From the NCBI GenBank assembly GCA_012439925.1, contig GCA_012439925.1_4519.1: a DNA stretch of 64,000 nt; one strand, written 5' to 3'. How positions within the stretch are numbered: the stretch's first letter is position 1; each line of letters begins with the position of its first letter. Below the pieces are notes generated by a model. That model made no database searches. It was not told where the DNA came from and saw nothing but the letters and a program-made list of their open reading frames with translations. Positions 16,245 through 27,572 of this stretch are shown here, one piece after another. Origin of the DNA: a phage. A program made the position numbers and the translations under genes.

Positions 16245-16532
16245 ATGTTTACTAAAATCAAAGAGAATCCTGCTACTGAACTGGTTATTCGCTGCGAAGA
16301 ACTTGTAGAGCTCTATCACGTCAACAAGAACGTATATCGTAGTGTTGTTGCAGATATGGCAGATGAAGTTTGTTCTCGAATTCCATTTAGTGTTGATTTT
16401 GATCGTACAGCACCGGGAGAAATCACTATCGTCTTTGGTTCTGACTATACTGAAGAACGGGCTCTTAATGCCCTAGAATATGAAATGTCATTCTTTGACA
16501 TACAGGACTACATTGATAGTTATAAGGAATGA
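16245..16532 (+). CDS. small acidic protein, possible Arn-like anti-restriction protein
   Basis: 95 aa with about 20 acidic versus 9 basic residues; lies between motA and asiA where T4 arn lies; sequence identity not verified. Confidence 0.3.
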   Translation: MFTKIKENPATELVIRCEELVELYHVNKNVYRSVVADMADEVCSRIPFSVDFDRTAPGEITIVFGSDYTEERALNALEYEMSFFDIQDYIDSYKE

Positions 16533-16533
16533 T

Positions 16534-16695
16534 ATGAGCCATAATCTGCAGAACGTAGTAGAGGCAGAACGTGAGCGTGAGGCTTTAGTCTATAATGAAC
16601 TATTAGCCACGTTCTTGGCCTTACACTCGTATGAACAGGAAGACTACACTGATTACGTTAAAAGTGTAGAAAAAGCTGTTTACAATCAACACTGA
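16534..16695 (+). CDS. hypothetical small protein (53 aa)
   Basis: Start MSHNLQ chosen downstream of the previous stop. Confidence 0.35.
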   Translation: MSHNLQNVVEAEREREALVYNELLATFLALHSYEQEDYTDYVKSVEKAVYNQH

Positions 16696-16741
16696 TAATG
16701 GTACTATACTCATATCAACAAAATGGAATGAATAAAACGTT

Positions 16742-17014
16742 ATGAATAAAGATATTGAAATTGTACGTGAAATTATTACGGTTGCTTCTATTTTGATTAA
16801 ATTCTCTAGGGAAGATATTGTTGAAGACCGAGCAAATTTCATCGGATTCTTGAATGAGATTGGAATTAAAAAAGATGGTCGGCAGCTAAATCAGAATTCG
16901 TTCAGAAAACTAATTACAAATTTAACTGCCGAAGAAAAGAAAACACTGATTAGTGAATTCAATGAAGGTTTTGAAAATATTTATCGCCATTTGACGATGT
17001 ATTCTAACAACTAA
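16742..17014 (+). CDS. asiA: anti-sigma-70 factor AsiA
   Basis: 90 aa, identical in length to T4 AsiA; REIITVASILIKFSREDIVE and EFNEGFE motifs match T4 AsiA as recalled. Confidence 0.85.
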   Translation: MNKDIEIVREIITVASILIKFSREDIVEDRANFIGFLNEIGIKKDGRQLNQNSFRKLITNLTAEEKKTLISEFNEGFENIYRHLTMYSNN

Positions 17015-17674
17015 TTATTTAGCCCGCCCTAATATCCTTGCTGCTTGGTTGCATATTGCAGCCAAGCGTTCTTCATTTAATACATCCGACCCCTTATACC
17101 AATACATAGAAACAGTTCCCGCATATATGTTATCCAAATTGAAGTAAGGACAACTATACATATACGCCAGTTCAGGAGTTTTTGATTTGGTAGGTAAGAA
17201 AGCAAAATCTGTTTTAGAAGTAAAGTGAAGTCCACTTAAATGGACCGAATATTCTGCTGTCGTTTTATCGACAGGAAATCCTCCCATAGATTTTTCAGTT
17301 ACTGTGCTAGGTAACTTACCTTCATACGCAATAAGGTCGACGAAATAATTTAGATTTTTAGGTCTGAAAGAATACACCGAACTAAAATCCGCCCTTGATG
17401 TGACGTGGACTATTTGTAGTTGTTCTAAAGCCGCAGATTCAAATCGTGTATTTCTTTCTTTTTGAATTACTTCTGTGTAAGTATCATATTTCGACCTCAC
17501 GTAATAATCCATAAAAATATTCCCTTTGTACCATATTAGTGCCATTAGGAACAAAAGAACTACAACAGCAACTCTTGAAATAAGAATATTTCCAGAGGCG
17601 TTATCTTTGAAAATGCGGTCTAGCAACCCAAATAAAATATCACTAGGCGAAAATGATACTTTTGGTGCTGCCAT
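17015..17674 (-). CDS. t: holin
   Basis: Start trimmed to MAAPKVSFSPSDILFG (T4 T begins MAAPRISF); 219 aa; single N-terminal transmembrane segment and large periplasmic domain; SD GGGAGG. Confidence 0.9.
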   Translation of the reverse strand: MAAPKVSFSPSDILFGLLDRIFKDNASGNILISRVAVVVLLFLMALIWYKGNIFMDYYVRSKYDTYTEVIQKERNTRFESAALEQLQIVHVTSRADFSSVYSFRPKNLNYFVDLIAYEGKLPSTVTEKSMGGFPVDKTTAEYSVHLSGLHFTSKTDFAFLPTKSKTPELAYMYSCPYFNLDNIYAGTVSMYWYKGSDVLNEERLAAICNQAARILGRAK

Positions 17675-17693
17675 ATTACCTCCCATTTATCAA

Positions 17694-17701
17694 TATTTAT
17701 A
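17694..17701 (-). promoter_or_regulatory. late promoter TATAAATA for gene t
   Basis: TATAAATA on minus strand, about 20 bp upstream of the trimmed t start codon. Confidence 0.55.
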
Positions 17702-17719
17702 ATTGAGAGGTATTATCGT

Positions 17720-18493
17720 TTAAATCCAGGAGCCGTAGATTGTGCCTGTAGCACCCCATGACGGTGAACTTCCGAATACTGCTCTGCCAGGAGCACCACC
17801 GCCAGATCTAGATAAGTGATTACCCCATCCATCTCCGCCCCGACCCCCAGCATCGCCACCATTACCACCGCCGAATTGGGAAGTGTAACCGGCACCACCA
17901 GGCGCGTCATAACTAGCATTACCACCCGGCCAATTAACGCCACCTCCGCCGATGCCAAATGGTCTACCACCACCGCCACCTGCTGTAGCATTTGGCGCCC
18001 AGCTATTCTGTAATGACACTGCACCACCTCCGCCACCGCCTGATGCAATAACACCATAGTTCCAAATACGAAGTCTTCCGCCGATATCATTTTGGATTAC
18101 ATCGCCACCATTAGTGCCTGGGTTTCCGTTTACAGTACCGTTACCACCTCGTCCCCACATATGAACTCCACCATGAATATTCAAAGTAACATATTCATTT
18201 GGCGTATCGCCATACATAAAGAATAATGGAACATCTTTACTATATGATACCAAATTTCCGGTGATATTAAACACTATAGGTGCACTACCCGCCTCAAAAC
18301 ATCTATCTCGGAACCATTGACCGTTGAAGTTATGGTCTGCTCCAAGTGTGTGAATTATTTCAACAGATCGACCTATCATATTACTCATCCAAAACGGAAT
18401 TCCCATTCTCAATCTCTGCGCGGCACCACCCATCCAATTTTGTCCTGTATTAACTACTGCAGACGATCCTACCCACGGTCCTGTTACTGCCAT
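17720..18493 (-). CDS. 38: T2-type gp38 tail fibre adhesin with glycine-rich motifs
   Basis: Start [13 protein letters not shown]; 257 aa (T2-type gp38 about 260 aa, T4 chaperone-type gp38 183 aa); multiple poly-Gly motifs separated by variable segments. Confidence 0.85.
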
Positions 18494-18505
18494 ATAAACC
18501 TCCAA

Positions 18506-18519
18506 GGGGCCGAAGCCCC
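18506..18519 (-). other. TTCG-loop hairpin immediately upstream of the gene 38 Shine-Dalgarno
   Basis: Minus-strand GGGGCttcgGCCCC followed by TTGGAGG-N7-ATG; no U-tract, so not a classical terminator. Confidence 0.5.
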
Positions 18520-18524
18520 TCTTA

Positions 18525-21500
18525 TTATTTTAACAATGATTTAACTAATGCTTTAAGTTCTTCAATTTCTGATTTAAGTTCCGCAATTTCTGCAGTATGC
18601 TCATTGATTGCAGCTGTATTTAAACCAATTACACCGTTATAGTTCAAACGAAGTAAAGCTTCACCATCCGGGTCGCCTTCAACTAATTCTGGTAAAATAG
18701 CTTGAACTTCTTGAGCAATTAAACCGGCGTTAGGTTCCCATTTCTGATTGCCTTCTTCGTCCGTTCCACGTTTCTGCATATAAGTGTAACCGTTAATTTT
18801 AGAAAGCTTCTGAGAAGCATTTTCAAATTTAACGAGGTCTTTTTTAACACGAATATCAGAGCGGACATAAACATCACGGACAAACGTTGAATAGCTGTCA
18901 TTCGCCTGAACGAGATGCCCATGAGAAACGATAGCTCTTCCAACTTCTGTCCAAAAAGCACCGGTTGAATCCCAAAGCCCAGGATGAGATTGATAGCCTG
19001 CTCCCCAGTTTGCAATATGTATACCATTGGCAACCATATTGATTCGGCCGTCACCACCATGAACTAATCCAGTATCATTATCGCCAATAACAAGACATGG
19101 TCCAGTCCACACCGGGTCACCACCGCCAGCCGATAATCTTGCTCCAGTTTGTACCATGTTAGGAGCATACATAACTCCATTGTGGTGGAATTCATAGATA
19201 GCTTGTGGATCGCTAGCATTTTCCTGGTTACCAACACGAATAATAGCCTGAGCCCATTGGTTAGTGGTACGGCGCATACCAAAATCAACACCAGATACGT
19301 ATCCTTCATTCGTAATAACAGATTTTCCTTTGATAATTGGATAATAACTATCATTACCGACATAGCCAAAATCCACAAATACGGGGGCTTCTAAGCCCCA
19401 TTGGTCGCCCCAAGCGCCAGATTTATGTGCAACCCATTGACTAGCATTTATATAAAGGCGGTCTCTATTAAAATTAAATGTTCCTTGTCCTTGAGGAGAA
19501 AGCGATATTTCACCGGTATTTGTTATGTATACACCGCCTTGTGTAATGTAACTGTAAAAACCTAGACCATTGTCGGCACCGCCTTTACCAATATACCAAT
19601 TATTGGCCCCGGCCGTATCAGAACGAATAAATGATGAATCACTGGTCAAAGGAGGATTAAGAACTATTCCAGCGGCATCTTTATTAATCCAAAGAGTGCC
19701 GGTCATCGTGTCGCCTTCTTTCGAAACACGAGTCGCAATAGCATCGCGAATATTTGTAGTATCACCGGCAGAAGTAAACGTTTTCCAGATATCAGACCAG
19801 ATATTACCATTGCGAGCAATAGTAGCTTCACCGCCGCCAACAGCAACGTTATCTGGGAAGTTAACAGTACCGTCTTGATTAAAACGAGACGTATGGCCTT
19901 GTGAACCATCTTCTTTCAGATGATGAATAACGAATGTACCCGAATTAATTTCAGTACCTAAAGACCAAACGGCTTTACCATTTAAAAACTTCTGTTTAAC
20001 AATAGGATAATATTTGCTTACAGCATCATCATCAATTTCCTGGAAAATAGGAGCCGCTTGGGCATATTGAATATCATATCCACCTGCGCCAGCGCCATGA
20101 CCAACAAATTTAATATAGCCGTTCGCTGCGAACGTATTGTAACTTGATTGTAAATCTGGAATAGTAACTTTACCGGTATCTAAAGCCATACTAAACGGGC
20201 GAAGTGGACCGATATCACCATTTTTGCCTTCACCGTAAGCAGTTGGAATAATATGAAGACTACCTTCTGAACGTCTAAAAATGGCTCCATAATCTGCATT
20301 CCAAATGCGAAGTGCATTCACTGCTCCAGATGAAATTTCACCTGTTGTGTGAACTCCTCTATCTCCAGCAGTAACACCAGATGATTCAAATGAACCATTA
20401 ACGTTCATTTCTACTTCGCCAGTAGTAAGTCTTTGAATATAGCTCATCCAGCTAGTTGCATCAGAAATTTCCATAATGTTTTTACGGATACCTCCGCTTG
20501 GATCAACAAACGTATTACCCCAAACTTTAATATCCATATTATCAACCGAGCTGTATCCTGTTGTGTTGCCTCTAAACATTAGTGTAGAAGAATTATTTCT
20601 ACCATCTATATTTACAGAACCGCCAATAACGTCAATATTACCAGGAGTAACTAACAAACCGCCGTGAGTATTAATGTTTGTAGTACCCTTGCCGCGGAAA
20701 TAATGATGATAGTTACCGCCTTGATAATATCCCAAAAGAGTCTGACCATCTCCAAACGCGTTATTATCGTGATATGTCACAACAGTAGCAAGAGCATAGT
20801 TTTCAGTTGGAGGAGTAGTTAAATCGGTTCCATTAGTAGAATATCCAGCTACAAATTTTCTTAGGCTAGTTGTTTCGCTAGGATTAAATAAAAACGTTTT
20901 TGTTCCATTATTAACGCTGAAATAATATCCGTCTTGATGCCATTTAAATCCAGTATCATTATCTCCTAAAGCAATGCTAGATGGTCCTAATATTGAATAA
21001 TCTTTATTACCTGGTGTTAAACCGATAGAAATTGAGTGACTTGATTTAATTCCGCCGCTCCAGGTAAATGACCAAAGATAAGCATCTAATCCATCTCCAC
21101 TATACCAAGTTATTCCATCATTATCTTTAACTTCATGGAAAATACCAGAACCAACGGCATTACGCATGACACGAAGATGATTAATAGCAGTAGTGCTTTC
21201 AGACAATGGAACATTGTCTGCCATCGAATAGATGTCATAATCACCCGTAGATTTATTATTAGTAATGACTTTGTTGGTTAGAATTTGTGGAGACGAAATA
21301 GATTTCCATGCTGATACTTCAGGTGAAGTAAATAGTCCACTGCCTGAAAATGCATAAGTGCTTTCGCTACCAGCGGCATAGTCTTGAACCCTGATATTAA
21401 GTACTTGTGTAGTTAAACCATCATTAGCCGGGGCATAAATGATTCCGCGTTCGCGACTATTGTTATCGAAAAAACGAACATGTGCTGTGCCTGAACTTTT

Positions 21501-21839
21501 TGTAATAAGTTCACCGCCTTCAGTCATAATCTGCCCGGCGGCAAAAATATCGCGAGTTACTCGAGCAATACCAGTTAAATTAAAATTACCCGTCTGTGTG
21601 AAGACGCCATTTAAAGTATAATCACCAGTTTGGTTGTAATTGCCAGTATGAATAACATTCCCGTCAATACTACCACCTTTAGCAAAACCTAGATCAATAA
21701 TATTTCCTTGGTCATCTTTAGTAAAAAGTACACGGTCTTTTAAGTTTATAGCCAATTCACCTTCGGCTAATACTGAAGCGGCAGGACGTGCTCCTGCAGT
21801 TTTGCTTCTTTTAAATTGTATTTGTTTTAAAGTAGCCAT
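18525..21839 (-). CDS. 37: long tail fibre distal subunit with C-terminal intramolecular chaperone domain
   Basis: 1104 aa; N-terminus [13 protein letters not shown]...[18 protein letters not shown] matches T4 gp37 as recalled; C-terminal about 100 aa resemble the self-cleaving chaperone domain of tail fibre and endosialidase proteins. Confidence 0.9.
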
Positions 21840-21847
21840 AAGTCCTC

Positions 21848-22504
21848 TTAATAATAGCCGAAATCTTGAACAGAATCCTTAATAACAATTTGGTCAAATC
21901 GTGGAACATGCGATGGTTGAGATGCAGGATTCTGTGAGAAAAAGTTTGGGGCGGTTAGCGCGCCGGTCATCGTATCTCCTGAACGGAGTACACGACTGTT
22001 TGCATTAGCATTAACTGTATTTATTTGACTATCAACATAATCTTTGCGAGTAAGGTCGTAATTATTTAAAGGTGCTAACGTTGTGGCTCTGAATTGAGAT
22101 GCTTCAATAACGCCTTTAGAACTTATATTACCGGTGCGAGTATCAATTACAGCAGTTCTTTCACCTGTACCTTGAGATGATTTAAACCCAATACCATACC
22201 ACGAAACAATATCCATGTTTGTTTGGTCGAATGTCGCGGCGTCACCACCACCAGAAAAAATACCATTCGTTTGGTCATCTGCTGTTTTGACTGCAACACC
22301 TTCGTTAAAGATTACCTTTTTGAGATATGTCCCACCGTTTGCTTTAGATACGAAATCGTTATCAGCCGCTTTTGGCTTGTTATATTCGGTGTATAATTTA
22401 AATGTTTTATATAGGATGTCATCGCCAGCTGGCATTAAAGGAAAATTGCCTTGATGCCATATGACGGAACCACCAACTGTACTTCCGGCTTTTAAATCGG
22501 CCAT
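21848..22504 (-). CDS. 36: long tail fibre hinge/distal connector
   Basis: 218 aa (T4 gp36 221 aa); N-terminus MADLKAGSTVGGSVIWHQGNFPL matches T4 gp36. Confidence 0.9.
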   Translation of the reverse strand: MADLKAGSTVGGSVIWHQGNFPLMPAGDDILYKTFKLYTEYNKPKAADNDFVSKANGGTYLKKVIFNEGVAVKTADDQTNGIFSGGGDAATFDQTNMDIVSWYGIGFKSSQGTGERTAVIDTRTGNISSKGVIEASQFRATTLAPLNNYDLTRKDYVDSQINTVNANANSRVLRSGDTMTGALTAPNFFSQNPASQPSHVPRFDQIVIKDSVQDFGYY

Positions 22505-22530
22505 TTCGTGTCTCCTTATTAATATTAAAG

Positions 22531-22538
22531 TATTTATA
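22531..22538 (-). promoter_or_regulatory. late promoter TATAAATA for gene 36
   Basis: TATAAATA on minus strand between genes 35 and 36. Confidence 0.55.
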
Positions 22539-22540
22539 CG

Positions 22541-22562
22541 CGAAAAGGAGACCGAAGTCTCC
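22541..22562 (-). terminator. intrinsic terminator after gene 35
   Basis: Minus-strand GGAGACttcgGTCTCC followed by TTTTCG. Confidence 0.6.
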
Positions 22563-22563
22563 T

Positions 22564-23688
22564 TTATTCTGTGTACTCTTTAAATTCCTGCCCAAATACC
22601 TTACCTGTGTCGTTAGATAACTGAGTAGGCAAGTCCATTATATCATTACCGATTAATGATTCATCGATGTAATTAGCACGAATACCGTTTAGGCCAAACT
22701 CGGCGGGTTTTGCTATACTTCCGTTACATGATACTTCAGTGAAAATAACATTTCTTAGTCCACCTTGACCGACTGGGGCCGTACGGTAACAATATACTGT
22801 AAAGCCATCGGCTTCAGCTGGTATTTCAACATATTCTTCATATAGCTTCCACACCCCGGCAGTTCCGTCAAAGTTTATATCTTTAGATGATATAGGAGAG
22901 CTAGATGGAGACTTAAAGAAACGAATTGAAAGTCTTGTGGTTCCTTCCTCTAGTAATGCTTCATCAGCCATTAATTGAAATTTCAAATAAAGAAAATCTG
23001 TAGGCTTTAATCCATAGTTTGCGATAGGAGTAACAAGGGATGATGTAGGCACCCTTTTTATTTCATTGTTAGTTCCTCCAACAGGAGATAAAAACGTTTC
23101 TAGAGCTTCATATGTACGTCTAGGATAGCCGGTAGCACCTATATCAGCAATAGAGTCATATACAATATCTAATGGAGTTGAGTAATCAGAAATTGTTTTC
23201 TTATTACTGTATTTTATGTGTTCTAATGCAATAGTATTTTTACCTGAAACATAAAACGCTGAATATGAAATATCAACAAGACTAGCAACTTCAATTGACG
23301 GTATAACTGAACTCCCAGCAGCTTTAAACCATTCAATTATTTCTGGCGGCAAATTAAATTTGTTATTAGAAATAAATGCGAAAATGAAATTATCTGCGTA
23401 TGTATTAACAAACGAAATAAATGCAGCTGAAGTTGCATTATTTGTAGGCGCAAAATTGTATAATTTACTATCAACTATAGTTCCATTTTCCGGATTTATT
23501 ACCCTAACATTTAGTCCAATACCAAAAGACTGCAACCCTAAAGGCTCATTTTGGAACAAAATATACGGATTAGTTGTTGAAAGCGGGCATGAACCCGCTA
23601 TACTTAGCTTAAATCTAACTGAATTGCTTTCCGATAAAAACGGCGTTTGGACGTATCCTTGTCCAAACCTTGCCATAAATTTTTCCAT
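22564..23688 (-). CDS. 35: long tail fibre proximal connector (hinge)
   Basis: 374 aa (T4 gp35 372 aa), position between 34 and 36. Confidence 0.85.
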   Translation of the reverse strand: MEKFMARFGQGYVQTPFLSESNSVRFKLSIAGSCPLSTTNPYILFQNEPLGLQSFGIGLNVRVINPENGTIVDSKLYNFAPTNNATSAAFISFVNTYADNFIFAFISNNKFNLPPEIIEWFKAAGSSVIPSIEVASLVDISYSAFYVSGKNTIALEHIKYSNKKTISDYSTPLDIVYDSIADIGATGYPRRTYEALETFLSPVGGTNNEIKRVPTSSLVTPIANYGLKPTDFLYLKFQLMADEALLEEGTTRLSIRFFKSPSSSPISSKDINFDGTAGVWKLYEEYVEIPAEADGFTVYCYRTAPVGQGGLRNVIFTEVSCNGSIAKPAEFGLNGIRANYIDESLIGNDIMDLPTQLSNDTGKVFGQEFKEYTE

Positions 23689-23696
23689 ATAACCTC

Positions 23697-26600
23697 TTAT
23701 TCAACCCATATAAATTTAACTGTTTTGTTAACCGGGTCTGGAACAATTCTCACATTTCCTAATTGTAAGAAGTCTCGAACAGTAAGGTTTCCAATCACAG
23801 CATTATCGGACGGGATAGCACCGACATCGCTAGGTGAAGGTGGGTTGCCACTATCAAATACCATTGCAAATGAGGTCCAAGCATCTTTATTTTTCTGCCA
23901 GGTACGAGTATAACGAATACTACCACCATTTGCACCTGTAGGATAACAAATCCAATCCTGATAAAGCGAATCTAAGCTATTACCAAATTGAGTCAAAGTA
24001 CCAGGATATTTAATTTCTTGGTCACGGTTACCTTTGTTATCACGCGTCCAGTATCCAGGGAATTGGCTATATACAGCAGAATCGTTAATGTCAATAGACC
24101 AAAAACCTACAGTAGAAGCTGTTGGTTTATCGGTATAAACCGTGGCAGTTTTAACGCCGTTAGAAATAATCCTGTTATTTACAGTTAACCCACCGGTAGT
24201 TATTGTTGCACCACTTGTGATTTGAACACCGTTGTCAAGACGAACTAGGCCTGTGGCATTGTTAATCGTGATCGGGCGTAAGTTATTAAACGTCCCTGTC
24301 TGGTCACCTGAGTTAGTTAATGCAATATAAGAACTGTTACCAGCATTATAAAGCATAACACCATAGTTACCGTTAATAGCTCTGAATGCAATAGGAGAAC
24401 TAGAAACAATTTCGCCTGTAGCACTAATAGGCCCGGTAAAGGTAGAAACACCTGTAACGTTTAATCCATTTGTAGAAACAATGCCTGTTGAATAAAGTGT
24501 TCCATTAATATTAAATGATACTTTATTATCAGAAGCGCGCTGAGAATAGAAATGGTATCCAGTTTCGTCACCCGCTTCAAATACTGTATCACGGGCACCA
24601 TCTGTAGCGCTATTACCCCATGCTCTAACAACGAAATTCTCTTTATTACTAAGAGATTGAGTTCCTTTAGTGAAAACTATTTCGGAACCGCTAGAGTCAT
24701 TAAGAGTTAATCTACGAGTAACAGATGCTTCGGAACCAAAAGAAGCAGTGCTTGTAGATACTAAAGGAGCACTCAGGTTGGTCTGTTTAGTAAGACTTAA
24801 AGAACCATTAACAGTCTGGTCGATGTCTCTACGGATGAACTGAAGAGAATCTAGACCATCTAACAGATTACTATCTACGGCTTTAGCTTTCAATGGCAAA
24901 TAGTTAGCAAGTACACGGTTTAATTCATATGGAGAAATAGCATAACTATTTTTCTCGTAAAGATTCAGGTCCTGGGTACTACCTTGAGTATCGTCACCAA
25001 CGAATGTAATAGAACCAGATGAAGTTTTAACGAATCCACGAATTGCCGTAGTAGCAGCCCATGTTGGTTCATCCTGGACAATCCATTTTAAATTCTTAGG
25101 CGATACAGCAGTATTAGCAGAAGTTCCTGTTACAGTTTCAGCCTGAGTAGCAACCTTAATCACGCCTTCAGACGTTTCAGTGGACTTAGTCCCTAAAAGT
25201 TTTTTAGGAGTAATAAGAACATCATCTAAAGTTCCGGCATTAGATTCTGCCTGAGTCGCTACGCGAAGTGTACCACGTTGTGTTTCATTTGCTTTAGAAA
25301 TATCAAGAGTATAATGGTTCCACAAGGTTCCTTCTTCAATAAGTCCGGAATCAGAATTAACACTGGTACGGTCAGAAGAATCAAAATGAGTTTTAATTTT
25401 CAGTGGAGACGAGATACGAGTATCGTCAGTTCCAGTATCAAATTCAACTTGCGTAGCAATTTCGGCTATGCCGGATAATCCTTCCGTAGCTTTCCTATCA
25501 TTTAACGTCTTAGGCGTTACTGCTCTAGTATAATCAGTTCCAGTGTTAGTTTCTGCTTGCGTAGCAATTTCAATTAAACCAATACGTCCATCAGTAGAAG
25601 TTTTCTTATGTAGTGTTTCAGGGGTCACTACAGCATTAGCCCAACCGGCTTGTGATTCACCAGCGATAACTTCACTTTCAATAGCAAGAATTACTGCGCC
25701 CTGTTGAGTAGGGGTAGCTTTATACTGGTCAAGAGCCTTTGGAGAAATAGTTAAATTATCTACGGCTTTGTTATAAACGTTAGTCCCAGCATTACCACGA
25801 ACAGTAGCCGCTGTAGTACCAGTCGTAGATGTGTATTTTACAATACCAGATAAAACTTCAGAACCTTGACGGGCATCCAATTTCTTAGGAGTAATAATAG
25901 TGGTATCATCTATGCCAGCATTAGTTTCATCCTGAGTTGCAACTTCAGCAACACCTCTACGGGTTTCAGTTGCTGTACGTTCGTTCAATTTCTTAGGAGA
26001 AATAATCAAGTCGTCTTGGAATGCAAAATCGGTATTCTGGTTAACTTGTGCAGTTGTTGCAATACGAGCAATACCACGACGAGTTTCAGTTGCTGTACGA
26101 TTTGCTAATGTTTCCGGAGTAATAGCAAGTTCTTTACCAGGAGCATTTTCTAAATCGACATTTGCTTGCGCTTGAGAAGCAAGAGCAATAACACCTAAAC
26201 GAGCTCGAGTTGTATTGCTCGATGCATCGACTCGTTCGACGGTTACAGTGTTTTGTTGAACTACCCAATATTTTGTTTCAGATGAATAATCTTCTATATA
26301 AGCTAACTCAAGTACAGGTACATACGAAGTATCGCCATTAAATTCCAGCTCACTAACAGAAACCCATTGTGCATCAGGTGGATACTCTGAACGTTTTGGG
26401 AACTGTAATAAAGAAATACTGCTAGCAATTGTATCGCCTTCAGCAGCTTTAATTTTTACAGTTTGCCCTTTACGCATATAATTCAACGATATTTTAACAG
26501 TATCACCAGACAAAATATCTGTAGGCAAAGTAAGATTTACCGTCGAGATTGTATCATTATTAGTTCCAAAAACAAGAACTTCTTCATTAGGGCGTAAATC

Positions 26601-27530
26601 AGTATCATTACGAACTATACGTAAACGAGATTTCTGGTCACCTTCCCAAACACGCCATAAGCTATTAGCAGAATCATAAACAAAGAATGCTTCCGCAGTA
26701 TTACGTCCTTCTGCTACATGAACACCGGCTTCTCGTATAGAAGTTGTATCATCGTAAGTTTTGACAATTGTGTGATATAACGGGTTTAATTTGTCTAAAT
26801 CAACTAAATTAATAATATCACCATTATTAGCATTACGAGGCAATGTAATATTAATAGGAGCGGCTGATGTAAAACGTCGAATGATAAAATCATTAGGTTG
26901 CGCCTGATACGGCTTAGCAGGAGTTACTGTGACTGCATTACGTTCGTAATCAGAAACATACATTTGCCATAGGCGGTTGCTAAAAATGAAGACCATTTTA
27001 GATTTTGGGTGCGTCATTAAAACTGAACGAACCTGTTGTCCTCTAAAGTTTACAATACTTTGAGCCTCTGCAGTAATTTGAACTTTTACATAGCCTACTC
27101 TACCGCCAATATCAGACAAAATAACTGTATCGCCATTTAAAGGATTTTTAGGCAAAGTGAAATTAATATCAGTGCCAGCTGAAGTATCAACCACAATAGA
27201 GTTACCTACTGATAATTGGAAATCTCCGCCTTGAACTGTAATCCATTCTGCATCTGTACGAGTTGCCTTCCATTTAGCCAAAGAGAAAGGGCCTGCCGGA
27301 GCTGGAATATCGCTTAAAGCTTGATAAAAACGATTATCATAAAGAACAATAAAATCTTTTGTATACGCGCGCGTATCGTCATAATTCTGTACGGTGTTTT
27401 CTTGCACCAAAAAGTCAACGTTCACGCCATCGGTGCCAACTGTGCGGTCAGCAAGCGCAACGTTAACTATCTTATCACCGCCTGCGTCAAGACCATCTTC
27501 GGCCCTGAACTTACGTTTGATGTCAACCAT
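23697..27530 (-). CDS. 34: long tail fibre proximal subunit
   Basis: 1277 aa (T4 gp34 1289 aa); internal repeats of about 40 aa of the phage-fibre type; synteny. Confidence 0.9.
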   Translation of the reverse strand: MVDIKRKFRAEDGLDAGGDKIVNVALADRTVGTDGVNVDFLVQENTVQNYDDTRAYTKDFIVLYDNRFYQALSDIPAPAGPFSLAKWKATRTDAEWITVQGGDFQLSVGNSIVVDTSAGTDINFTLPKNPLNGDTVILSDIGGRVGYVKVQITAEAQSIVNFRGQQVRSVLMTHPKSKMVFIFSNRLWQMYVSDYERNAVTVTPAKPYQAQPNDFIIRRFTSAAPINITLPRNANNGDIINLVDLDKLNPLYHTIVKTYDDTTSIREAGVHVAEGRNTAEAFFVYDSANSLWRVWEGDQKSRLRIVRNDTDLRPNEEVLVFGTNNDTISTVNLTLPTDILSGDTVKISLNYMRKGQTVKIKAAEGDTIASSISLLQFPKRSEYPPDAQWVSVSELEFNGDTSYVPVLELAYIEDYSSETKYWVVQQNTVTVERVDASSNTTRARLGVIALASQAQANVDLENAPGKELAITPETLANRTATETRRGIARIATTAQVNQNTDFAFQDDLIISPKKLNERTATETRRGVAEVATQDETNAGIDDTTIITPKKLDARQGSEVLSGIVKYTSTTGTTAATVRGNAGTNVYNKAVDNLTISPKALDQYKATPTQQGAVILAIESEVIAGESQAGWANAVVTPETLHKKTSTDGRIGLIEIATQAETNTGTDYTRAVTPKTLNDRKATEGLSGIAEIATQVEFDTGTDDTRISSPLKIKTHFDSSDRTSVNSDSGLIEEGTLWNHYTLDISKANETQRGTLRVATQAESNAGTLDDVLITPKKLLGTKSTETSEGVIKVATQAETVTGTSANTAVSPKNLKWIVQDEPTWAATTAIRGFVKTSSGSITFVGDDTQGSTQDLNLYEKNSYAISPYELNRVLANYLPLKAKAVDSNLLDGLDSLQFIRRDIDQTVNGSLSLTKQTNLSAPLVSTSTASFGSEASVTRRLTLNDSSGSEIVFTKGTQSLSNKENFVVRAWGNSATDGARDTVFEAGDETGYHFYSQRASDNKVSFNINGTLYSTGIVSTNGLNVTGVSTFTGPISATGEIVSSSPIAFRAINGNYGVMLYNAGNSSYIALTNSGDQTGTFNNLRPITINNATGLVRLDNGVQITSGATITTGGLTVNNRIISNGVKTATVYTDKPTASTVGFWSIDINDSAVYSQFPGYWTRDNKGNRDQEIKYPGTLTQFGNSLDSLYQDWICYPTGANGGSIRYTRTWQKNKDAWTSFAMVFDSGNPPSPSDVGAIPSDNAVIGNLTVRDFLQLGNVRIVPDPVNKTVKFIWVE

Positions 27531-27564: not shown

Positions 27565-27572
27565 TATTTATA
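27565..27572 (-). promoter_or_regulatory. late promoter TATAAATA for gene 34
   Basis: TATAAATA on minus strand about 35 bp upstream of the gene 34 start. Confidence 0.55.

Follow-up and report, generated by a model that had tools for sequence, protein, structure and literature searches.

An adhesin-capped fibre tip, a self-cleaving chaperone domain and CUUCGG hairpins all belong to textbook T-even biology and are already known. Processing of gp37 followed by capping with gp38 has been documented for phages S16, T2 and T6 (PMC7917993, PMC3157838, PMC6851490). The tryptophans of the gp38 attachment domain dock into pockets of gp37 (PMC6851490), and S16 gp37 is cleaved at DLNVS^SDRRIKK (PMC7917993), where the caret marks the scissile bond. 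Ser/Lys dyads have been described elsewhere, at S911/K916 in endoNF and at S587/K592 in MyRF (PMC8326128). The CUUCGG hairpins of T4 were documented by Tuerk et al. (1988), as cited in PMC7165471 and PMC8948821. Here we follow up a sequence-only reading of a tail-fibre region in a 64,000-nucleotide stretch of phage DNA (contig GCA_012439925.1_4519.1 of assembly GCA_012439925.1), referred to below as the window; the coordinates of its features are collected in Table 1.

The gene order on the minus strand of the window is g34-g35-g36-g37-g38-t, with gp38 encoded directly 3' of gene 37 and 5' of the holin gene t. This architecture is identical to that of the modules of the Tequatrovirus RB51 and the Mosigvirus phages RB69 and FL31, and the locus very probably encodes, in an RB69-like Mosigvirus, the distal tip of a long tail fibre of the adhesin-capped T2 type, which would operate by the mechanism proposed in the last section. 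The same three phages have a spacer hairpin of the same sequence as the window and a nearly identical chaperone domain, and their gp38 proteins are 99.2% (RB51 and FL31, as well as RB68) or 97.3% (RB69) identical to the gp38 of the window. FL31 gp38 is two residues off, with I181L falling in a glycine-rich motif. Near-identical sequences are already in public records.

The gp38 adhesin and the gp37 chaperone domain

A mechanical list of open reading frames begins gp38 at TTG 18505, giving 261 aa. We rejected this start in favour of the ATG at 18493-18491, which gives 257 aa, because the TTG codon falls within the stem of the hairpin upstream, the ATG lies 5 nt past a GGAGG (18503-18499), and the homologues of RB69, RB51 and FL31 are annotated at equal length (774 nt). 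Two Pfam models of the adhesin family match the protein above their curated cutoffs: GP38 (PF05268), as a whole model, at residues 45-257 (3.3e-83, 279.2 bits, cutoff 25), and Gp38_N (PF21721) at residues 1-40 (1.7e-21, 76.3 bits, cutoff 25). Adhesin families were the only Pfam matches of gp38 at E<=0.01, the T4-type chaperone family being absent. Among PDB entries, gp38 matches the S16 adhesin over its full length (6F45_D, 1.8e-50) and the PP01 receptor-binding domain at residues 37-256 (9V85, 5.9e-74), the latter being its best match to a solved structure. These matches support the earlier proposal that gp38 is of the adhesin type of about 260 aa, unlike the 183-aa chaperone type of T4, and they suggest that the protein is present at the fibre tip of the virion.

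Like the adhesin in the S16 tip complex, (gp37)3-gp38 (6F45), the window gp38 has a predicted order of three-tryptophan attachment helices, beta-helix and polyglycine sandwich. The tryptophans W7, W20 and W35 are invariant in an alignment of ten sequences (window, RB51, RB69, FL31, ECP52, PECP20, Bas47, T2, T6 and S16), and the attachment domain differs in subtype, with MAVVGVPGWIG in T2 and T6 and an S16-like MAVTGPWVG in the window. All four glycine motifs quoted in the sequence-only reading were found in the translation, where we locate GGGGGGA at 152-158, GGGGG at 172-176, GIGGGG at 180-185 and a fourth motif at 209-222; glycine makes up 25% of gp38 and 34% of residues 110-257. The same reading described glycine-rich motifs that separate variable segments, and the alignment agrees: GRGG 114-117, G152-G157, G172-P178, G210-G213 and G232-A234 are invariant with respect to S16, T2 and T6, whereas the segments in between differ among T2, T6, S16 and the window group. 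Protein family, gene position and the alternation of glycine-rich and hypervariable stretches are shared with gp38 of T2 (FadL/OmpF) and T6 (Tsx).

At the amino acid level, the window gp37 is 90-95% identical to gp37 as annotated in many phages of Tequatrovirus and Mosigvirus. Its C-terminus had been likened to self-cleaving chaperone domains, and this likeness holds: Peptidase_S74 (PF13884) matches residues 994-1053 (1.9e-12, 47.7 bits, cutoff 22) over model positions 1-57 of 58, and residues 915-1104, cleavage motif included, align with S16 gp37 (6F45_A, 6.6e-43). The serine at the scissile bond and the lysine five residues on that mark a chaperone domain of this family are both present in the conserved motif, forming a predicted catalytic dyad, Ser994/Lys999, with a spacing of +5 (S994-D-I-R-V-K999). 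Two positions had been given for this C-terminus, of which 18525-18830 is right, while 21839-21540 covers the start of the gene and encodes the N-terminus. The cleavage motif is kept in RB69, RB51, FL31, PECP20, Bas47, T2 and T6, reading ...VYIR^SD.R.K in the last two. S16 gp37 carries the same domain and motif, although the residue ahead of the cleaved serine is Ser in S16 and Arg in the window. Endosialidase-type chaperones (K1F endoNF, the T5 L-shaped fibre pb1, K5 lyase and the MyRF ICA) share with the window the Pfam family, the Ser/Lys pair at +5 and a C-terminal helical segment; unlike in those cases, the window domain belongs to the long tail fibre of a T-even phage, where its removal would open a docking site for a separate adhesin. 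The data support the identification of this C-terminus as an intramolecular chaperone of the Peptidase_S74 family, homologous to its counterpart in S16 gp37, and suggest that gp37 cleaves itself in the window phage.

Table 1. Features of the tail-fibre tip region (positions are those of the window; all on the minus strand)
Feature	Position	Strand	Details and basis
Gene 38, T2-type tail-fibre tip adhesin (assigned by homology)	17720..18493	(-)	257 aa plus stop; Pfam, PDB and homologue matches
gp38 specificity region, residues 110-257	17723..18166	(-)	glycine-rich motifs and hypervariable loops in alternation; alignment
gp38 codon 206, CAA (Gln), OmpF-state residue	17876..17878	(-)	third hypervariable loop; sequence
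Mosaic segment	18350..19548	(-)	gp37 residues ~765-1104, hairpin, gp38 residues 1-48; sliding-window identity and mismatch maps
gp38 N-terminal attachment domain, residues 1-40	18374..18493	(-)	W7/W20/W35; Pfam Gp38_N
gp38 Shine-Dalgarno, GGAGG	18499..18503	(-)	1 nt past the 6-bp stem, 5 nt ahead of ATG; sequence
C(UUCG)G tetraloop hairpin	18505..18520	(-)	6-bp stem (7 bp with the G18521-U18504 wobble); sequence, fold, conservation
Gene 37, long tail fibre distal subunit	18525..21839	(-)	1104 aa; ORF; Pfam Gp34_trimer and Peptidase_S74
gp37 intramolecular chaperone domain (Peptidase_S74), residues 994-1104	18528..18860	(-)	final heptad-like helix; Pfam; S16 alignment
Predicted autocleavage site, R993^S994	18858..18863	(-)	in DVYVR^SDIRVKK; aligned to the S16 site
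Late-promoter motif TATAAATA	22531..22538	(-)	ahead of gene 36; motif search

Receptor specificity of gp38

A comparison of the gp38 variable segments with those of related adhesins had been suggested as a way to predict the receptor, and it gave a clear candidate. Residues 47-257 of the window protein are identical to those of RB69 and PECP20. RB51 differs from it only by I46V and N80D, neither of which lies in the loops; ECP52, like RB51, adds just N80D within residues 47-257, and residue 46 is either I or V among members of the group. The variable loops contain none of these differences and are the same in the window, RB51, RB69, PECP20 and ECP52, and Bas47 AlbertHofmann departs from the window by two residues in the 47-257 region. 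OmpF is required by RB69 and RB51 (PMC3157838), OmpF binding of RB51 was found by RB-TnSeq (bioRxiv 10.64898/2026.04.02.716166), Bas47 is OmpF-dependent, with complementation (PMC8594841), and fPS-2, with a gp38 that is 91.5% identical, uses OmpF plus LPS. In RB51 gp38, Q206 binds OmpF and the change to Q206L, as in RB68, leads to OmpW (bioRxiv 10.64898/2026.04.02.716166). The window gp38 has the loops of the OmpF-specific subgroup (RB51/RB69/Bas47 type), Q206 included. Since Q206 is retained and the same loops are found in phages for which OmpF has been assigned by experiment, we predict that the primary receptor of this gp38 is almost certainly the E. coli porin OmpF.

OmpW was considered as the receptor, RB68 gp38 being as similar to the window protein as that of RB51, and was rejected, as codon 206 encodes Gln as in RB51. 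In tblastn output, the GenBank record of RB68 itself apparently has the residues of RB51. The published L206 of RB68 may belong to a particular laboratory stock.

The window adhesin might nevertheless use another receptor (OmpW, OmpC, Tsx, OmpA, FadL or TolC), or OmpF might be one of several redundant ones. Plating of FL31 goes down by just one log on ompF and tolC mutants (PMC12032242), and Trojet et al. listed FhuA and LPS core beside OmpF for RB69 and RB51, which are also dependent on them (PMC3157838); OmpF may therefore be neither the sole nor a strictly essential receptor. The specificity of gp38 also appears fragile, given that the single change Q206L suffices to move RB51 gp38 to OmpW. 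Against this stand the loops identical to RB51 and RB69, the retained Q206 and four independent studies that assigned OmpF to the gp38 type of RB51, RB69 and Bas47. The loops of T2 (FadL), T6 (Tsx) and the OmpC binders S16 and PP01 are, moreover, clearly unlike those of the window. Overall gp38 identity is 49% to T2, 63% to T6 and 50% to S16, which has other loops and binds Salmonella OmpC; PP01 shares the scaffold, but its hypervariable loops diverge in the 9V85 alignment, notably past residue ~200, and its receptor is OmpC of E. coli O157, not OmpF (PMC12892980). We consider a different or redundant receptor quite unlikely. It is extremely improbable that gp38 is a T4-like assembly chaperone absent from the virion, with gp37 itself bearing the receptor-binding tip. 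T4 gp38 has the same name and the same position 3' of gene 37, and the RB69, ECP52 and JS10 homologues of the window protein are labelled 'assembly catalyst' or 'assembly chaperone'. However, these labels are inherited from T4 gene names, and the RB69 record itself names the unrelated T2-subfamily 'gp38' as adhesin. The T4 protein is unrelated to that of the window, with no Pfam or PDB match, and we rejected a T4-type identity on the Pfam and PDB results, the window gp38 matching adhesin families and solved adhesin structures over its full length. T4 gp37 has its own receptor-binding needle tip and is without an S74 domain, whereas the window gp37 ends in such a domain, which is a removable chaperone and not a needle tip. 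The reading we retain is that of a tip adhesin predicted to recognise primarily OmpF.

The g37-g38 hairpin and transcription of the module

A TTCG hairpin had been noted between the two genes, directly before the gp38 Shine-Dalgarno, and it lies exactly there: in a spacer of 31 nt, the double stop of gp37 (TAA TAA) is followed by AGGGGC-TTCG-GCCCCT at 18520-18505 and then, 1 nt past the stem, by GGAGG. The hairpin is kept at the same place in eight relatives, among them RB69, RB51, FL31, ECP52, PECP20, Bas47 and T2, while in T6 a variant with a UUU triloop takes its place. Compensatory changes occur at three of the six pairs, with 97% of cells paired (six distinct sequences). The window contains 12 intergenic CUUCGG hairpins on the sense strand, this one included, against ~0.8 expected; in all 12, UUCG forms the loop on the strand that is sense for the neighbouring genes, which indicates selection on the sense RNA. 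The CUUCGG hairpins of T4 likewise have a C(UUCG)G loop on a short G+C stem, are intergenic, lie on the sense strand and are highly over-represented, and the window hairpin corresponds to the T4-type intercistronic hairpin in loop, stem, intergenic location, sense-strand orientation and compensatory changes. The 81-nt context of the hairpin folds no better than shuffled sequence (z = -1.15), an unremarkable score, so it is covariation and genome-wide enrichment, not thermodynamics, that argue for the hairpin. A Rfam scan of 16500-23000 gave nothing relevant, with one sub-threshold miRNA match (E = 0.13), and the hairpin is outside the curated RNA families.

Motifs of the form TATAAATA lie upstream of g34, g36 and t; the motif is absent from the g37-g38 spacer, and none lies upstream of g38. 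By analogy with what is known of T4 late promoters, the copy ahead of gene 36 likely starts a g36-g37-g38 transcript. A hairpin with a G+C-rich stem could also be a transcription terminator, either ending a g36-g37 transcript or blocking opposite-strand early antisense transcription into the late tail-fibre genes. The plus-strand reading with its tail CTTATTATTT was flagged as terminator-like by a consensus scan, and the tail is more T-rich on this reading of the palindrome, in keeping with an antisense terminator. On the sense strand, however, UUGGAGGUUUAUAUG comes after the stem and makes a poor U-tract, and because g38 is without a late-promoter motif of its own, termination in the spacer would silence an essential gene. 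The sense-strand placement of the UUCG loop in every CUUCGG hairpin of the window also argues against termination; the complementary CGAA loop is not known to be unusually stable. A terminator is accordingly unlikely, and the most likely role of the hairpin is to protect the polycistronic late mRNA or to punctuate it.

Proposed tip assembly and the mosaic segment

We propose that genes 36, 37 and 38 are co-transcribed, probably from the late promoter ahead of gene 36, with the hairpin putatively shielding the g37 message from 3' exonucleases and setting a structured boundary immediately ahead of the gp38 ribosome-binding site. The gp37 protein would trimerise aided by its 111-residue C-terminal intramolecular chaperone domain. 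Once the trimer has folded, the Ser994/Lys999 dyad would cut the Arg993-Ser994 bond and so free the chaperone domain, baring a hydrophobic, triangular gp37 tip that ends in ...DVYVR. A single gp38 monomer would then cap this tip via its N-terminal three-helix domain by inserting Trp7, Trp20 and Trp35, and its C-terminal polyglycine sandwich, formed from the conserved glycine-rich motifs, would display the hypervariable loops that are predicted to bind OmpF as primary receptor.

The nearest relative of the window is PECP20, and the sole local peculiarity with respect to it is an allele swap of ~1.2 kb, in which the mosaic segment of Table 1 carries an RB51/FL31-like allele between flanks that are ~100% PECP20-like. 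The segment covers the distal shaft and tip of gp37, the chaperone domain, the spacer hairpin and the gp38 attachment domain. Over its full length, gp37 is a new mosaic to which no record exceeds 94.9% amino acid identity, with its N-terminal ~760 aa PECP20-like and its distal part RB51/FL31-like; in the distal stretch 18860-19560, no catalogued phage is more than 91% identical.

In practical terms, the analysis offers a confident annotation together with a receptor call made from sequence, with OmpF as the predicted primary receptor. Q206 marks a known one-step route to OmpW, which is useful to know in the design of phage-therapy cocktails, and the 'assembly catalyst' labels that persist on database records of window-type gp38 could be corrected from the present annotation. 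It is about as likely as not that 18350-19548 moves between Tequatrovirus and Mosigvirus lineages as one co-adapted 'docking cassette', independent of the receptor-binding loops. If it does, the window would be a fresh natural recombinant in which a PECP20-like fibre and an OmpF-binding head are joined via an RB51/FL31-type interface. The mosaic junctions of the window offer a further natural example of a gp37-gp38 docking interface and receptor loops being exchanged separately.

The gp38 adhesin and its predicted receptor

Comparison of gp38, encoded next to the distal long tail fibre subunit gp37, with Pfam, PDB and homologous sequences identifies it as a tip adhesin, as the sequence-only reading had proposed, and detected no resemblance to the 183-aa T4 chaperone. 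The protein matches the Pfam families GP38 (3.3e-83) and Gp38_N (1.7e-21), and aligns in its entirety with the adhesin of the S16 tip complex (6F45_D, 1.8e-50) and over residues 37-256 with the receptor-binding domain of PP01 (9V85, 5.9e-74). The "assembly catalyst" labels on some homologue records are inherited gene names, as the RB69 record itself states. A mechanical ORF list placed the gp38 start at a TTG at 18505, which was ruled out because this codon sits within the preceding hairpin; the start is the ATG at 18493, 5 nt past GGAGG (18503-18499), and the resulting 257-aa product agrees in length with the RB69, RB51 and FL31 annotations. In an alignment of gp38 from the window, RB51, FL31, RB69, ECP52, PECP20, AlbertHofmann (Bas47), T2, T6 and S16, the docking tryptophans (W7, W20 and W35) and every glycine-rich motif are invariant, and the segments between motifs vary from one receptor group to another. 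All four glycine motifs originally quoted are present in the translation. Trojet et al. (PMC3157838) described this alternating modular design, for which the S16 structure supplies an explanation (PMC6851490).

Alignment of the variable segments, put forward as a route to the receptor, points to OmpF. Residues 47-257 are the same as in RB69 and PECP20, and the only differences are I46V and N80D relative to RB51, and N80D and I181L relative to FL31. Besides FhuA and the LPS core, RB69 and RB51 require OmpF (PMC3157838), RB-TnSeq maps RB51 to OmpF (bioRxiv 10.64898/2026.04.02.716166), AlbertHofmann is OmpF-dependent with complementation of the mutant (PMC8594841), and fPS-2 and fPS-90 use OmpF plus LPS (PMC7917993); the dependence of FL31 on OmpF and TolC is weak, at one log (PMC12032242). 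A single Q206L substitution, the RB68 state, shifts RB51 to OmpW (bioRxiv 10.64898/2026.04.02.716166), and codon 206 in the window (17876-17878) is CAA, encoding Gln. Based on this residue and near-identity to OmpF-assigned phages, the primary receptor is predicted to be OmpF, with the caveat that in certain hosts the phage may depend on it only in part. The GenBank gp38 sequences of RB51 and RB68 are equally identical to that of the window (99.2%); RB68 differs from RB51 by Q206L according to the 2026 preprint, a change that may be missing from the RB68 sequence as deposited.

The C-terminal domain of gp37

A self-cleaving chaperone domain had been suggested at the gp37 C-terminus, and this resemblance is borne out by a Peptidase_S74 match (residues 994-1053, 1.9e-12) and by alignment of residues 915-1104 with the S16 gp37 fragment 6F45_A, cleavage region included (6.6e-43). 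Its placement at the 3' end of the gene was right (see table), but the interval 21839-21540, also assigned to it, encodes the N-terminus, the one error in that reading. In S16 gp37, cleavage separates the two serines of DLNVS^SDRRIKK, freeing the last 113 residues and exposing the gp38 docking surface (PMC7917993). Since DVYVR^SDIRVKK of the window aligns with this site, a cut is predicted between R993 and S994, which would free 111 residues as opposed to 113 in S16. Ser994 and Lys999 have the same +5 spacing as the dyads of endoNF (S911/K916) and MyRF (S587/K592) (PMC8326128), and the motif VY(V/I)R^SD.R.K also occurs in gp37 of RB69, RB51, FL31, ECP52, PECP20, Bas47, T2 and T6. The final ~30 residues probably form the coiled-coil helix in which domains of this kind typically end. 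In T2 and T6, gp37 is proteolytically processed and then capped by gp38 (PMC3157838); from close homology we infer cleavage, capping and receptor use in this phage also. Elsewhere in gp37, residues 453-550 (20189-20482) match the proximal half-fibre domain Gp34_trimer (Pfam, 5.9e-7; PDB 4UXE and 5NXH, ~5e-12), indicative of a module common to gp34 and gp37.

The g37-g38 spacer hairpin and late transcription

Downstream of the double stop (TAA TAA) closing gp37, the TTCG hairpin reported immediately ahead of the gp38 Shine-Dalgarno was found in the sequence as described. The stem-loop is predicted in both minimum-energy and centroid folds, and the stability of its 81-nt context is not unusual (z = -1.15). 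The hairpin sequence is identical at this position in RB69, RB51, FL31 and ECP52, the stem is GGGCC/GGCCC in PECP20 and Bas47 and GAGGGC/GCCCTC in T2, and T6 has a UUU triloop instead. In the alignment 97% of cells pair, with double compensatory changes at three of six pairs among only six distinct sequences; comparative evidence for the hairpin is better than the folding evidence. With a threshold of at least 5 bp, the window contains 12 C(UUCG)G tetraloop hairpins (stems of 5-11 bp) versus ~0.8 expected from shuffles, all of them intergenic or overlapping a stop codon and, relative to the flanking genes, on the sense strand. T4 has a known class of CUUCGG hairpins, to which they belong (Tuerk et al. 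1988, as cited in PMC7165471 and PMC8948821).

Features of the tail-fibre locus and C(UUCG)G hairpins of the window
Feature	Coordinates	Strand	Remarks
gp34	23697-27530	-	ORF; Pfam Gp34_trimer + Gp34_2nd
gp35	22564-23688	-	ORF; proximal hinge connector
gp36	21848-22504	-	ORF; Pfam Phage_T4_gp36
gp37	18525-21839	-	ORF, 1104 aa; Pfam Peptidase_S74
gp37 C-terminal domain	18528-18860	-	Peptidase_S74 + S16 alignment
gp38	17720-18493	-	ORF; Pfam GP38 + Gp38_N
Holin t	17015-17686	-	ORF; Pfam Phage_holin_T
TATAAATA late-promoter motif	27565-27572	-	just upstream of g34
TATAAATA late-promoter motif	22531-22538	-	just upstream of g36, directly downstream of g35-g36 hairpin
TATAAATA late-promoter motif	17694-17701	-	just upstream of t
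g35-g36 hairpin	22544-22565	-	C(UUCG)G class
g37-g38 hairpin, AGGGGC-TTCG-GCCCCT	18520-18505	-	in spacer, immediately ahead of gp38 Shine-Dalgarno
C(UUCG)G hairpins	3773, 10268, 12606, 14136, 30834, 37172, 45848, 46790, 51115	+	
C(UUCG)G hairpins	18504 and 22544 (the g37-g38 and g35-g36 hairpins above), 62189	-	

The late-promoter motif TATAAATA occurs 11 times in the window, a total not above chance, so that positions alone are informative. None was found in the g37-g38 spacer and g36 has one upstream, hence g38 is most likely read from a g36-g37-g38 transcript, with the hairpin internal to that mRNA. A role as mRNA stabiliser or processing barrier is favoured. Transcription termination is less likely, as the U-tract on the sense strand is poor and a stop in this spacer would silence g38; the T-tail is better in the plus-strand reading, through which the hairpin may act on antisense early transcripts.

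Affiliation and mosaic structure

Megablast affiliates the window with the RB69-like genus Mosigvirus (~97% identity to ATK47 and relatives over 24 kb), and all genes of the tail-fibre operon lie on the minus strand in the order gp34-gp35-gp36-gp37-gp38-t. Residues 58-131 of gp35 match Pfam ILEI (interleukin-like EMT inducer, PF15711; E = 6.5e-7, 30.2 bits, cutoff 27). The start of holin t is ambiguous, either the ATG at 17686 (223 aa, RB69 annotation) or GGGAGG followed by ATG at 17674-17672 (219 aa, as annotated in FL31, PECP20 and Bas47). Glycine GGN codons of gp38 account for the elevated G+C (0.47-0.51 versus ~0.36 in the flanks) and strongly negative plus-strand GC skew at 17500-18250, a stretch that also yields spurious long ORFs at 17713-18090 (-) and 17816-18013 (+).

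The fibre locus is 93-96% identical to those of PECP20, FL31, PTE-Eco05 and RB69. An identical gp37 protein is recorded only in one SRA-derived assembly, and the top catalogued gp37 is 94.9% identical. By sliding window, t, the receptor-binding part of gp38, gp37 codons 1 to ~760, gp36 and gp35 are ~100% identical to PECP20, whereas 18350-19548 diverges sharply from it. This interval is an allele swap relative to PECP20, the nearest relative, with RB51/FL31-like sequence in the distal third of gp37, the chaperone domain, the spacer hairpin and the gp38 attachment domain; within it, 18359-18662 (gp38 attachment domain, hairpin and distal half of the chaperone domain) is exactly RB51 and 18904-19055 exactly FL31, and identity to any catalogued phage is at most 91% across 18860-19560.

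The sequence-only observation is thus confirmed and its interpretation supported: by sequence gp38 is an adhesin of the OmpF subgroup and falls outside the T4-type gp38 chaperone class, gp37 carries an S74 chaperone domain, and the hairpin is of the CUUCGG class. The gp37-gp38 module is already known, and with modular exchange well documented in T-even fibres, the allele swap is a detail rather than a discovery. The gp37 tip and chaperone subtype changes together with the gp38 attachment subtype (MAVTGPWVG... versus MAVVGIPGWIG...), as expected of a docking interface.
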